DNA of 64,000 nt from Mustelus asterias (GCF_964213995.1 NW_027590135.1:930001-994000); one strand, 5' to 3'. Positions 8,091 to 23,531 are shown, numbered from the stretch's first letter. A program made the numbers and translations. The notes: generated by a model from the sequence alone, not told the origin.

Positions 8091-8219
8091 GGCGGCACGG
8101 TGGCACCGTGGTTCGGGACCCGAGTTCCGAATTATATTATATTATGTTATTATATAACCCTATATAATCTCTCCAGCCATGCAGTCATCTGCTCCACCTA
8201 TTCTCATTCATGTATTTCC

Positions 8220-8309
8220 CCTGAAGGTGCTGACTCTGACTGGGTTCAGTTCTACACTCACTGGTCCCTCTCGCTCCTCCCCTGAAGGTGATGTCTCTGG
8301 GTGGATTCA
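8220..8309 (+). repeat. 60-bp tandem repeat units, interrupted by the CR1 insertion (resumes ~12667-12693)
   Basis: CCTGAAGGTGCTGACTCTG.CTGGGTTCAGTTCTACACTCACTGG matches the units at 15711-15872. Confidence 0.75.
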
Positions 8310-11300
8310 TAGAAACATAGAATAACTACAGCACAAAACAGGCCCTTCGGCCCCACAAGTTGTGCCGAACATATCCCTGCCTTTTAGGCCTATCTATAAC
8401 CCTCCATCCTATTCAGTCCCATGTACTCATCCAGGAGTCTCTTAAAATACCCTATTGAGTTTGCCTCCACCACCACTGACGGCAGCCGATTCCACTCGCC
8501 CACCACCCTCTGTGTGAAAAACTTCCCCCGAACATTTCCCCTGTACCTTAAACCTGTGTCCTCTCGTAGCAGCCATTTCCACCCTGGGAAAAAGCCTCTG
8601 AGAGTCCACCCGATCTATGCCTCTCAACATCTTATATACCTCTGTTAGGTCTCCTCTCATCCTACGTCTCTCCAAGGAGAAAAGACCGAGCTCCCTCAGC
8701 CTATCCTCATAAGGCATGCCACTCAATCCAGGCAACATCCTTGTAAATCTCCTCTGCACCCTTTCAATCTTTTCTACATCCTTCCTGCAATGAGGCGACC
8801 AGAACTGAGCACAGTACTCCAAGAGGGTCTTATATAGCTGCATCATTAACCCCGGACTCCTAAACTCAATCCCCCAATTGATAAAGGCCAGCACACCATA
8901 CGCCTTCTTAACCACCTCCTCCACCTGCGGGGCTGATTTTAGAGCCCTATGGACCCGGACCCCAAGGTCCTTCTGATCCTCTACAGTACTCAGAGTCTTT
9001 CCCTTTATATTGTACTCCTTCATCCCATTTGACCTGCCAAAATGGACCACTACGCATTTATCTGGGTTGAAGTCAATCTGCCCCTTGTCCGCCCAGTCTT
9101 GCATCCTATCAATGTCCCTCTGTAACTTCTGACATCTCTCCAGACTATCCACAACCCCACCAACCTTCGTGTCGTCGGCAAACTTACCAACCCATCCCTC
9201 CACTTCCTCATCCAGGTCATTTATGAAAATGACAAACAGCAAGGGTCCCAGAACAGATCCCTGGGGCACACCACTGGTGACCGACCTCCATTTAGAAAAA
9301 GACCCATCTATACACACTCTCTGCCTCCTTTGGGCAAGCCAGTTCTGGATCCAAAGGGCAGCAGCTCCTTGGATGCCATGCCCTCTCACTTTTTCTAGAA
9401 GCCTTGCATGGGGGACCTTATCGAACGCCTTGCTAAAATCGATATAAACCACATCTGCCGCTTTCCCTTCGTCAATGTGTTTAGTCACATTTTTGAAGAA
9501 CTCCACCAGGCTCGTAAGGCACGATCTGCCTTTGACAAAGCCATGCTGAGTAGTCTTGAGCATACTAAACCTCTCTAAATGCTCATAAATCTTGTCCCTC
9601 AGGATCTTCTCCATCAGCTTACCGACCACTGAGGTTAGAATCACCGGTCGGTAATTTCCTGGGCTATCCCTATTCCTCTTCTTGAAAATAGGAACCACAT
9701 CCGCAATCCTCCGGCACCTCTCCCGTCTCCATCGACGACGCAAAGATCATCGCCAAAGGCTCTGCAATCTCTTCCCTCGTCTCCCACAGTAACCTGGGGT
9801 ACATCCCATCCGGACCCGGCGACTTAACTATCTTGATGCCATTCAAAGATTCCAGCACAGCCTTAGATCATAGATCATAGAATCTTTTTGTTAAAGCCCA
9901 CATACTCAATCTTTTCAGTCCACCGCAAGCCCGCAGTACATCCACCCAGGTCCGTCTCCTCTGTGAAAACCGATGCAAAATACTCAGGAAGCACCTCCCC
10001 CATTTCTCCTGGTTCCGTACAGATTATCCCACCTTCACCATTTATAGTCCCTATTCCTTCACGTCTCATCCTTTTACTCTTCACATATTTATAGAGAACG
10101 CCTTAGGGTTTTCCTTAATCCTACCTGCCAAGGCCTTCTCGTGACCCCTTCTTGCTCTCCTAATTTCCTTCTTTAGTCCCTTCCTACAAGCCATATACTC
10201 TTCTAAATCCCTATCTTCGCCAAGCTCTCTGAACCTTTTGTACGCTTTCCTTTTCTTCTCGACTCGGTCCCGCATAGCTTTCGTGCACCACGGTTCCTTT
10301 AACCTACAAACTCCTCCCTGTCTGCTCGGAACGTTGTCCTGTAGAACTCTAGACAGACATTCCTTGAAAAACTGCCACCTCTCTTCAGTACATTTCCCCG
10401 AGAATACCTCCTTTCAATTTACTCCACGTATTTGCTGCCTTATGTCTTCATATTCCCCCTTACTCCATATAAACGCTTTCCTAGCTTGCCTGATCCTCTC
10501 TTTTTCCAATGCAAGCATAAAGGAGATAGAGTTATAATCGCTATCCCCAAGATGCTCTCCCACTGACAGATCTGACACCTGTCCAGGTTCATTGGTCAGT
10601 ATCAGATCAAGTACAGCCTCTCCTCTTGTCGGATTGTCCACATGCTGTGTCAGGAAACCCTCCTGAACACACCTAACGAACTCTTCCCCATTCAATCCCC
10701 GTACCCTCAGGATATTCCAATGTATGTTTGGGAAATTAAAGTCTCCCATCACAACAACTCTGCTATTATTGCAACTCTCCAGGATCTGTTTCCCTGTCGG
10801 GCTCCTCCACCTCCCTGTTACAATTGGGCGGCCTATAGAAAACTCCCAGCAAAGTGATCGACCCCTTCCCACTCCGAACCACCCACAGAGACTCTGTAGA
10901 CAATCCCTCCACAGCATACACCTTCTCTGCAGCTGTGACACTGTCCCTGATCAGCAGTGCCACTCCACCCCCTCTCTTGCCTCCCTCCCTGTCCTTCCTG
11001 AAACATCTGAATCCCGGCACCTGGAGTATCCAGTCCTGTCCCCGAGACACCCAAGTCTCCGTAATGGCCCTCCACATCACACTTCCAGGCATCGATCCAC
11101 GCTCTGAGCTCATCCCCTTTATTCACTATACTCCTGGCATTAAAGTAAACACATCTCAATCCTTTGGTCTGAGCTCTCCCCTTCTCTATCCCCCGTCCAT
11201 CCTCCCTCTTGCACCGTCTATAACCCTTCTCTGTTTGCGAGCTAACTTCCTCGCTCCCAGTCACCTTGTCTCAATCCTCTCCCCCCAACCTATCTAGTTT

Positions 11301-12590
11301 AAACTCTCCCCAGTAGCCTTAGCCAACCTTCCCACCAAGATATTGGTCCCCCTGGGATTCAAGTGCCACCCGTTTAGTGTGTACAGGTCACACCTGCCCC
11401 TAAAGAGGTTCCAATGGTCCAGGAACCTGAATCCCTGCCCCCTGCACCAGTCCCTCAGCCACACATTCATCCTCCACCTCACTCCATTCCTGCCCTCACC
11501 TTCCTGTGGCACAGGCAGCAATCCTGAGATTACTACCTTTGCTTTCCTCCTTCTCAGCTGTCTCCCTAATTCCCTATACTCTCTTTTCACGACCCCCTTC
11601 CCCCTTCCTTCCCACATCAGCGGTACCAACATGTACCGCTACCTCTGGCTCCTCTCCGTTCCCCCTCAGGATTTCTGGGAGTCGACCAGCGACATCCTAG
11701 ATCCCGGCCCCAGGAGGCAAACCACCATCCGAGACTCCCGCCTGCCTCCGCAAAAACGCCTGTCTGACCCCCTTACTGTTGAGTCCCCGATTAACACTGC
11801 CTTCATCCTCTTTTCCTTAGCCCTCTGAGTTACAGAACTGGACTCCACTCCGAAGACACGGCCACTGCTGCTTCCCCCAGGCGGGCTGTCCCCCCCAGCA
11901 GTACTCAGGCAGGAGTACTTGTTGTGTAGGGGCACATCCACCGGGGTGCTCTCAATCACCCGAGCTTTACCCTTCCTGGCCGTCACCCACTTGCCCTCCA
12001 CCCGTGGCCCTGGTGTGACCACCTGATGATAGCTCTTGTCTCTCACCTCCTCATTCTCCCTTAACAGCCTAAGATCCTCGAGCTGCAGTTCCAGCTCCCT
12101 AACACGGTCCCTCAGGAACCACAGCTCGACACAACCCTCACAGATGTGGATGTCCGGGAGGCCAGGTGCCTCCAGGACCTCCCAAATCCGACACTGGGAA
12201 CAACACACTGGCTTCACACTCATATTTGACACTTTATACCAAGGTACACAGAAAAGTAAATAAGAATTAAAACTCACCCCTGCTCGCCCTGGCCCCCGAA
12301 GCCCTGTGAGCCAAAGCGCTTATAGCTCACACTCTGCTTCCCAATCACTCCCCTGACCGCTCCCGACGCTGCCCGCTGTGTACTGCAGCCTACCTTTTGG
12401 ACTTTGCGCGCTTTAAAAACCCTTCCCAGACTCCTTAGCAGCCCACTTCCGATTTTCAGTTTAAAATTAAGAAAAGAAAAATAGTACTCTAAATAAAGGC
12501 CAAAAAACACACTAACTAACAAAATAAATAATTAAATAAATCTCTCACCAGCACTCCTGCCACAAATCACTCCCTCTCTGCTTGCTCCAG
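8310..12590 (-). mobile_element. Full-length CR1/HER1-like LINE (frameshifted)
   Basis: ORF1 with CxxC..CxxC, coiled coil and SGNH-esterase motifs (IGDSTVRG, HLNPRG); ORF2 APE endonuclease (FNARSI, TETW, GDFN, SDYN) and RT ([19 protein letters not shown]); short-repeat tail (CATAGAAA on +). Confidence 0.95.
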
Positions 12591-12618
12591 TGGAACAATG
12601 AGCAAACGAAACCCTACT

Positions 12619-12653
12619 GGGCTCGTCCGGGATTTGAACCCGGGACTTCTCGC
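12619..12653 (-). pseudogene. 3' half of tRNA-Pro
   Basis: Reverse complement GCGAGAAGTCCCGGGTTCAAATCCCGGACGAGCCC equals tRNA-Pro from the 3' anticodon-stem strand to the discriminator with one change; 5' half absent. Confidence 0.85.
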
Positions 12654-12699
12654 GTTTTAATGCTCATTCCACAAATTCTGGTTCCTTTCTCTCATACAT

Positions 12700-13160
12700 A
12701 GAAAAATGTTGCCTGGTCTTGAGGGTGTTGACTCTGAGGAGAGGTTGAATAAATGCGGATTGTTTTGACTGAAAAGACAGAGGCTGAGGGGAGACCTGAT
12801 AGAGGTGTACAAAATTGTGAGAGGCACAGACAGGGTGGATAATCAGAGGCTTTCTCCCAGGGTGGAAGTGTCAATTACAAGGGGCACATGTTCAAGGTGG
12901 GAGGGGGAAAGTTTAAGGGAGATGTGTGGGGGCGATTTTTCATGCGGAGTGGTGGATGCATGGAACATGCTGCCACAGGAGGTGGTGGAAGCAGGCACAT
13001 GAACAACATATAAGAGACATCTGGATTGGTCCATGAATAGGGAGGGAACAGAGAGATACGGACTAAGTCAGGTTTTTTAAGTCTAGTTCGGGCATCATTT
13101 CGATACAGGCTTAGAGGGCCGAAGGGTCTGTTCTTGCGCTGCACTTTTCTTTGTTTTCTT
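12700..13160 (+). mobile_element. CR1-like LINE 3' fragment
   Basis: GDLIEVYKIVRGTDRVD motif and CR1 3' UTR. Confidence 0.85.
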
Positions 13161-22088: not shown

Positions 22089-23398
22089 TAGAACCATAGA
22101 ACCATAGAAAATTACAGCTCAGAAACAGGCCTTTTGGCCCTTCTTGTCTGTGCCGAACCATTTTATGCCTAGTCCCACTGACCTGCACTTGGACCATATC
22201 CCTCCACACCCCTCTCATCCATGAACCCGTCCAAGTTTTTCTTAAATGTTAAAAGTGACCCCGCATTTACCACTTTATCCGGCAGCTCATTCCACACTCC
22301 CACCACTCTCTGCGTGAAGAAGCCCCCCCTAATATTCCCTTTAAACTTTTCTCCATTCACCCTTAACCCATGCCCTCTGGTTTTTTTCTCCCCTAGCCTC
22401 AGCGGAAAAAGCCTGCTTGCATTCACTCTATCTATACCCATCAAAATCTTATACACCTCTATCAAATCTCCCCTCAATCTTCTACGCTCCAGGGAATAAA
22501 GTCCCAACCTATTCAATCTCTCTCTGTAACTCAGCTTCTCAAGTCCCGGCAACATCCTTGTGAACCTTCTCTGCACTCTTTCAATCTTATTTACATCCTT
22601 CCTGTAACTAGGTGACCAAAACTGTACACAATACTCCAAATTCGGCCTCACCAATGCCTTATATAACCTTACCATAACACTCCAACTTTTATACTCGATA
22701 CTCCGATTTATAAAGGCCAATGTACCAAAGGCACTCTTTACGACCCTATCCACCTGTGACGTCACTTTTAGGGAACTCTGAACCTGTATTCCCAGATCCC
22801 TCTGTTCAACTGCACTCTTCAGAGTCCTACCATTTACCCTGTACGCTCTTCTTTGGTTTGTCCTTCCAAAGTGCAATATCTCACACTTGGCTGCGTTAAA
22901 TTCCATTTGCCATTTTTCAGCCCATTTTTCTAGTTGGTCCAAATCCCTCTGCATGCTTTGAAAACCTTCCTCACTGTCCACTACACCTCCAATCTTTGTA
23001 TCATCAGCAAACTTGCTGATCCAATTTACCACATTATCATCCAGATCATTGATATAGATGACAAACAACAATGGACCCAACACCGATCCCTGCGGCACAC
23101 CACTAGTCACAGGCCTCCACTCAGAGAAGCAATCCTCCACAACCACTCTCTGGCTTCTTCCATTGAGCCAGTGTCTTATCCAATTTACTACCTCCCCATG
23201 TATACCCAGCGACTGAACCTTCCTAACTAACCTCCCATGAGGGACCTTGTCAAAGGCCTTGCTGAAATCCAGGTAGACAACATCCACCGCCTTCCCTTCA
23301 TCCACCTTCCTGGTAACCTCCTCGAAAAACTCTAATAGATTGGTCAAACATGACCGACCACGCACAAAGCCATGTTGACTCTCCCTCATCAGTCCCTG
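22089..23398 (-). mobile_element. Young 5'-truncated CR1 with an uninterrupted RT/C-terminal frame (22169-23389, 406 aa)
   Basis: No stops from SQHGFV to GQWD; (TATGGTTC)n tail. Confidence 0.95.
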
Positions 23399-23440
23399 AA
23401 AGAAGAAGCAAACCGTTTGCTACTAATCTGATCCAAAATC

Positions 23441-23531
23441 CGACTCTGGTGGGACTCGAACCCACAACCTTTGAATGGCTAACTTGCCCTTATTTAGAAA
23501 TCCAACGCGCTATCCATTGCGCCACAGAGCC
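23441..23531 (-). tRNA. tRNA-Arg(TCT) with 18-nt intron (23477-23494), apparently a retroposed pre-tRNA copy
   Basis: GGCTCTGTGGCGCAATGGATAGCGCGTTGGA-TTTCTA-[AATAAGGGCAAGTTAGCC]-ATTCAAAGGTTGTGGGTTCGAGTCCCACCAGAGTCG; U32 instead of the usual C32. Confidence 0.93.

Follow-up and report, generated by a model that had tools for sequence, protein, structure and literature searches.

The window analysed here is a 64,000-nucleotide stretch (G000:C103:930001-994000) of the 3.68-Gb Mustelus asterias genome that contains seven tRNA genes and five histone stem-loops. A minus-strand insertion of 4,356 bp occupies positions 8310-12665. It consists of a full-length CR1-type LINE and, immediately upstream of its 5' end and in the same sense, a fragment of a tRNA-Pro with the end of its intron and a 3' trailer (Table 1).

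Table 1. Features of the insertion and its flanks, in window coordinates.
Feature	Position	Strand	Basis
Left flank: degenerate units of the host 60-bp repeat, ending at the 3' junction	8160..8309	+	98% identity to empty paralog L175 (contig C223)
Full-length, inactivated CR1-type LINE, from the fixed family 5' end to the short-tandem-repeat tail	8310..12602	-	ORFs, domains, 5'-end comparison
ORF2 remnant with APE endonuclease and RT domains; multiple frameshifts; approximate start	8442..11200	-	PF14529 (E 4e-09), PF00078 (E 3.6e-32)
Later insertion within ORF2: CR1-tail-like repeat of ~20 bp, boundaries approximate	9864..9885	+	4/9 copies compared
ORF1 remnant: Cys-rich N-terminus, GDSL/SGNH esterase, frameshifted	11294..12223	-	PF13472 (E 4e-08) on 11297-11638
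Linker: single G at the trailer/CR1 joint	12603..12603	-	G also in 7/41 other CR1 copies
3' trailer, 15 nt, ending T-rich	12604..12618	-	Comparison of copies and source family
tRNA-Pro 3' exon, 36 nt; B box present, A box and anticodon absent	12619..12654	-	Full-length relatives are tRNA-Pro by ARAGORN
Tail of the tRNA-Pro intron, 11 nt; 5' end of the insertion	12655..12665	-	10/11 nt match introns of intact genes
Right flank: remainder of the interrupted 60-bp repeat unit	12666..12693	+	Joined to 8309 in empty paralogs

The boundaries were placed by means of empty paralogous sites. A search for such sites returned eight matches spanning the junction at 88-100% identity, and in six empty paralogs (L175, L188, L190, L194, L195, and L196) position 8309 is continuous with 12666, with no base gained or lost; L175, for example, follows the left flank and then runs straight into 12666 onward. 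The first-pass annotation had placed the end of the host 60-bp repeat correctly at 8309, while its restart, given there as ~12667, lies at 12666 and is in register. Its proposals that the tRNA piece belongs to the insertion and that the two flanks form one repeat unit are confirmed by the empty paralogs, which read straight across. Neither a CR1 nor any tRNA sequence is found at the empty sites among the paralogs examined, and we therefore rejected the idea that a CR1 landed downstream of a tRNA-Pro gene already in place, whose 5' half then disappeared.

In the same comparison the target-site duplication amounts to 0 bp, with a 2-nt microhomology at the 3' end, where the final two bases of the left flank (8308-8309) are also compatible with the CR1 tail repeat. 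The TCA(T) formerly read at both ends had to be abandoned, as base 12666 is a G in seven of the nine filled copies and in the empty sites, and the A of the window copy is derived, i.e. a later substitution. Target duplications of CR1 elements are often short or absent, and what such a duplication would show is shown here by the empty site. The junction rests on nine assembled copies from two contigs; when sequencing runs were queried with sequence words, none contained half of the words, and no RNA run was listed. Two further features of the surroundings are an older CR1 3' fragment adjoining the insertion (12706-13155, plus strand), which is present in the empty paralogs too, and ~3 kb that are found in paralogs between window positions 8128-8159 and are missing from the window copy.

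The earlier view that the insertion contains a full-length CR1 is upheld by the position of the family 5' end. Across the 41 other distinct copies compared, conservation fades out 2-3 nt upstream of 12600, and since the family 5' end is so sharply fixed there, the window copy can be regarded as full length (the exact motif is held by 43 of the 51 loci in this comparison). Within its 5' 1.3 kb it shares a median identity of 92.4% with dispersed copies (38 of 51 aligned over >800 bp). The 3' end is a short tandem repeat without poly(A), as described for CR1 elements (PMC4316615), and an ORF1 with esterase and Cys-rich N-terminus corresponds to type IVB (CR1 subgroup 7), with the esterase also reported from L2 subgroup 9 (PMC4120745). 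This anatomy fits CR1, and the element is labelled CR1 on that basis. The copy is dead and the locus inert, with no evident function. The short insertion in ORF2 is present in the window copy, L071, and L075 and absent from the most divergent copy, L070 (four of the nine copies compared). Five paralogs (L071, L072, L073, L076, and L077) carry later, paralog-specific insertions of 308-776 bp (CR1 tails, a SINE) near window positions 10440-10590 that are useful for ordering the segmental duplications. Five CR1 copies (L010, L244, L248, L254, and L255) share at least ~35 nt of extra sequence upstream of the 5' motif that partly resembles the CR1 5' UTR, a variant with a tandemly repeated 5' UTR that agrees with three spaced motif matches at C8:16376029-16376531.

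The tRNA-Pro part was initially described as a 35-nt 3' half (12619-12653); its sense orientation directly 5' of the CR1 stands, but the exon is one nucleotide longer and is preceded by 11 nt of intron. In transcript order, intron tail, exon, and trailer are followed by the single G and the fixed CR1 5' end; there is no 5' leader. Positions 12655-12664 equal the last 10 nt of a 13-nt intron in a tRNA-Pro family on contigs C85, C103, C130, and C141 (e.g. L101, L104, L108), and the piece breaks off within ~2 nt of the 5' splice site of that intron. The break may represent either a splicing intermediate or a truncation. In the most divergent copy (L009/L070), the trailer ends in seven unbroken T, resembling a pol III terminator and the terminators of the source family. 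The intron tail indicates that the donor was unspliced, and, combined with a trailer stopping at a T run, that it was a precursor; an unspliced precursor in turn suggests capture inside the nucleus. The linker G may be untemplated or derived from either the trailer or the CR1.

An exact 26-mer of the tRNA piece occurs 137 times in the genome. Most of the intact tRNA-Pro genes that were fetched have an intron after the anticodon, and ARAGORN names the relatives of the piece tRNA-Pro, one with an 18-nt intron, while the fragment itself was not called by ARAGORN or Rfam. The exact trailer, sought behind tRNA-Pro genes as the first-pass annotation had proposed, follows no intact gene in the assembly; the nearest three genes differ at 2 of 23 positions. 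Intron-containing tRNA-Pro and tRNA-Arg(TCG) genes are unusual for vertebrates. Introns of ~13-19 nt are present in most of the fetched tRNA-Pro genes (L059-L069, L078-L097, L101-L144; contigs C71, C85-C141, and others), which form several families with all three anticodons represented, and one locus (L274) is a tRNA-Arg(TCG) with an intron.

The junction is found in nine copies, five on contig C103 and four on C130, with flanks common to all of them (the contig ends within L074). When ~420 bp of flank are compared, divergence is 0-3.6% among eight filled copies, 2.2-3.2% for the nearest empty site, and 11-14% for the empty site L188. The shared flanks show the nine copies to be segmental duplicates of one event. 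Among 243 exact CR1 5' ends, these nine are the only ones preceded by a T-arm motif at a distance of 8-38 nt; no other tRNA was thus detected at full-length CR1 5' ends with this exact motif, which decayed pieces would escape, and a relaxed ARAGORN run flagged two of 41 regions upstream of CR1 5' ends. The combined tRNA-CR1 unit did not retrotranspose again, and its tRNA piece lacks an A box. A tRNA-headed SINE or LINE subfamily was rejected on the same absence of an A box and of dispersed copies with different flanks.

Fusions of this general kind are found beyond the locus. We inspected 28 tRNA-Pro loci on contigs C1-C70, comprising 19 among the 26-mer matches listed and nine recognized by intron likeness, a selection that is no census. 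By eye, ten are gene-like, 14 run into a SINE start within ~30 nt, three into a 5'-truncated CR1, and one into neither (L126, the single untailed dispersed copy). Hence 17 of the 28 are fused to a SINE start or CR1, mostly with leader, intron, and trailer retained, and the probability of meeting an exact SINE start at such a distance by chance is ~3.5e-4 per locus (arithmetic from 83,831 exact SINE starts). Most of the fused SINEs end in a CR1-like tail, except for L058 and L122 with another tail. Genome-wide, the T-arm motif occurs 194 times just ahead of a SINE start, compared to 89 matches in a control with the gap shifted by 100 nt, the latter being mostly a second SINE with one or two tRNAs by eye. 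The first 30 of the 194 loci comprise 12 tRNAs (Pro, Leu, Cys, Arg; eight with introns), 16 heads of the second SINE, and two unrelated sequences.

For 29 loci we asked whether a host repeat joins across the fusion: 19 have no upstream repeat, and the ten testable ones include four clear joins (L046, L048, L049, L128), two resting on a single doubtful pair (L260, L261), and four without a join (L123, L125, L138, L277). The four clear cases interrupt a host repeat in register, with the join at the tail end. In a comparison of 24 loci, one of them unplaced, with their best source among 49 gene-like loci, ungapped extension puts the end of the likeness 0-14 nt upstream of the mature 5' end in 22 of the 23 loci that could be placed, and such a boundary suggests a transcript-like donor; gapped alignments reach further in L128 (-19), L269 (-21), and L125 (-49). 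In the fusion L049, the match to gene L108 extends from -14 as far as the terminator. No spliced copy retaining the trailer of an intron gene was seen among the fusions examined. Upstream of the tRNA in L048 and L125, the 5' part of the tRNA and its leader are in part tandemly duplicated ahead of the full copy, which suggests repeated jumps or slippage at the 5' junction.

The window itself holds a second, independent chimera (22090-23531, minus strand), in which an intron-containing tRNA-Arg (23441-23531) with a trailer of ~40 nt heads a 5'-truncated CR1; this fusion interrupts a host CR1 in register with a gap of 3-5 nt (14 pairs). A tRNA-Leu(CAG) at 31982-32110 (minus strand), followed by a short T-rich trailer and then SINE-like sequence, is possibly another.

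Taken together, the locus holds one insertion with a sense order of tRNA and CR1, intron and trailer sequence in the donor, and a full-length CR1, followed by duplication and decay. The interpretation we favour, and consider probable, is that part of an unspliced pre-tRNA was joined in sense to the full-length CR1 by a template jump of the reverse transcriptase. Having copied its own RNA to the end, the CR1 reverse transcriptase would have switched to the oligo(U) at the 3' terminus of a primary pre-tRNA-Pro and gone on to copy the trailer, the 3' exon, and most of the intron, whereupon the cDNA would have been joined bluntly to the target. The tRNA/histone cluster was later segmentally duplicated to nine copies and the CR1 decayed, both of which are documented by the paralogs. 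The first-pass annotation had already proposed a jump to a pre-tRNA-Pro after completion of the CR1, followed by truncation; none of the refuting conditions that it set was borne out among the paralogs, and the intron tail fits a pre-tRNA as the donor. We infer the RNA donor and the end-to-end jump from the DNA structure, the end chemistry, and the variable trailers. End-to-end template jumps have been proposed for R2 and L1 (PMC2912911), and the same route likely also gave rise to the numerous fusions of pre-tRNAs with SINEs and CR1 at other sites of the genome.

A possible but unlikely alternative is that the two RNAs were ligated by RtcB before reverse transcription with 5' truncation, a route demonstrated for U6/L1 chimeras (PMC6789731). 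The sense orientation is as expected of ligation, a cleaved 5'-OH end could account for the sharply fixed 5' end of the CR1, and RtcB, being the tRNA-splicing ligase, meets intron-containing pre-tRNAs; however, intronless tRNAs were captured as well (L056, L260, L277, L279). Cyclic phosphates at the 3' ends of pre-tRNAs and 5'-OH groups at the 5' ends of pol III SINEs are not expected. According to PMC6789731, RtcB requires exactly these two groups and a triphosphate blocked ligation, whereas most SINE partners here retain their 5' start, and trailers range from none (L052) to ~55 nt (L091), unlike U6/L1, where 4-5 T are constant. Trailers of such varying length and SINEs with complete starts thus fit RtcB ligation poorly.

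Two insertions at one point, i.e. a stand-alone pre-tRNA retrocopy with a CR1 inserted at its T run, or the reverse order, seem decidedly unlikely. It is common for a SINE to begin right at a T-rich stretch within another SINE, and pairs with the second SINE also fill the shifted control (194 vs 89), so that SINEs evidently do insert beside T-rich sites; an untailed dispersed copy is known as well, but at a ratio of one to 17 tailed ones among the 28 loci. No intermediate exists among the sites seen, with all nine near-exact trailer matches carrying the CR1 and the empty sites having neither part, and no host base separates the tRNA piece from the CR1.

Even less can be said for a repair patch copied at the 5' junction from the genomic DNA of a nearby tRNA-Pro gene, which we hold to be very improbable. 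The insertion lies within a tRNA cluster, its contig also carries members of the donor gene family (L078, L134), intron and trailer exist in DNA too, and a piece without leader makes a DNA donor possible at this locus, but the piece stops in sense at a terminator-like T run, and the dispersed fusions have transcript-like boundaries far from clusters. Both the two-step insertion and the DNA capture are less likely readings. The last alternative, a tRNA piece that is a fixed, tRNA-derived component of a CR1 subfamily's 5' UTR, could appeal to the existence of nine copies but was rejected, given that these carriers are segmental duplicates sharing both flanks and that 234 of 243 exact 5' ends lack the motif, in line with the first-pass expectation of a subfamily 5' end without the tRNA piece.

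Chimeric retrocopies of small RNAs and LINEs are already known, and what appears to be new is the sense-oriented, unspliced pre-tRNA/CR1 form. In the literature searched, with few subscription papers among it, neither such a chimera nor an intron-containing tRNA-Pro in sharks is reported. Chimeras of U6 snRNA are described for L1, L2, and RTE elements, along with one unresolved CR1 case in turkey (Doucet 2015, PMC4476161). As characterized there and by Moldovan 2019 (PMC6789731), they resemble our locus in placing a pol III RNA, in sense orientation, on the 5' side of a LINE or its SINE within one insertion, and each event is unique and not self-propagating. They differ in donor and partner, which are here a primary pre-tRNA with intron and trailer and a CR1 or CR1-tailed SINE, respectively, and the CR1 at our locus is full length without the target duplication typical of L1 chimeras. 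The 21 human tRNA/L1 loci reported by Law and Burns (2025, PMC11838501) likewise contain roughly half-length tRNA pieces co-inserted with a LINE. Those, however, are mostly antisense halves (positions 1-37) with duplications of 9-19 bp and are ascribed to twin priming, in contrast to the unspliced 3' half in sense with trailer found here. Mammalian pre-tRNA and tailless tRNA retropseudogenes (Schmitz 2004, as cited in PMC4476161 and PMC2912911) also show tRNA precursors serving as templates for a LINE reverse transcriptase, but they are L1-made, and the tailless form is 3'-truncated and has no LINE part.

The interest lies in the fusion class rather than in the inert locus itself; the locus gives, thanks to its empty sites, a clean example of cellular RNA captured by a CR1-type element. 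Whether the CR1 reverse transcriptase of this genome routinely captures nascent, wholly unprocessed pre-tRNAs, so that dozens to hundreds of retrocopies with leader, intron, and trailer have come to be joined to CR1 or SINE bodies, appears to us an evenly balanced question. If so, pre-tRNA retrocopies would account for an appreciable fraction of the intron-containing tRNA loci described as "expanded" in sharks, where an excess of such loci has been reported (10.1101/2025.06.08.657570), and the fusion class offers a testable partial explanation for this excess. The retrocopies would also preserve a record of where pol III starts and of transcription in the germline from the unusual intron-bearing Pro and Arg genes, and the fusions would represent raw founders of tRNA-headed SINEs. 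The wider class provides direct examples of a step long proposed for the birth of such SINEs. For PittSINE, a switch from a CR1-tailed SINE to tRNA-Asp was proposed (Suh 2017, PMC5729268), by the same route of the CR1 reverse transcriptase moving from its template to a tRNA. Its founding chimera is hypothetical and became a family, whereas the events described here are individual and unamplified with empty sites, this one lacking an A box. SINE families of sharks have been catalogued (PMC3747384). In 16 of the 30 loci L258-L287, a second tRNA-derived SINE is represented by its head, which breaks off at a T-rich stretch and is joined to the start of the common SINE, and these joints may reflect either SINE-SINE jumps or an insertion preference.
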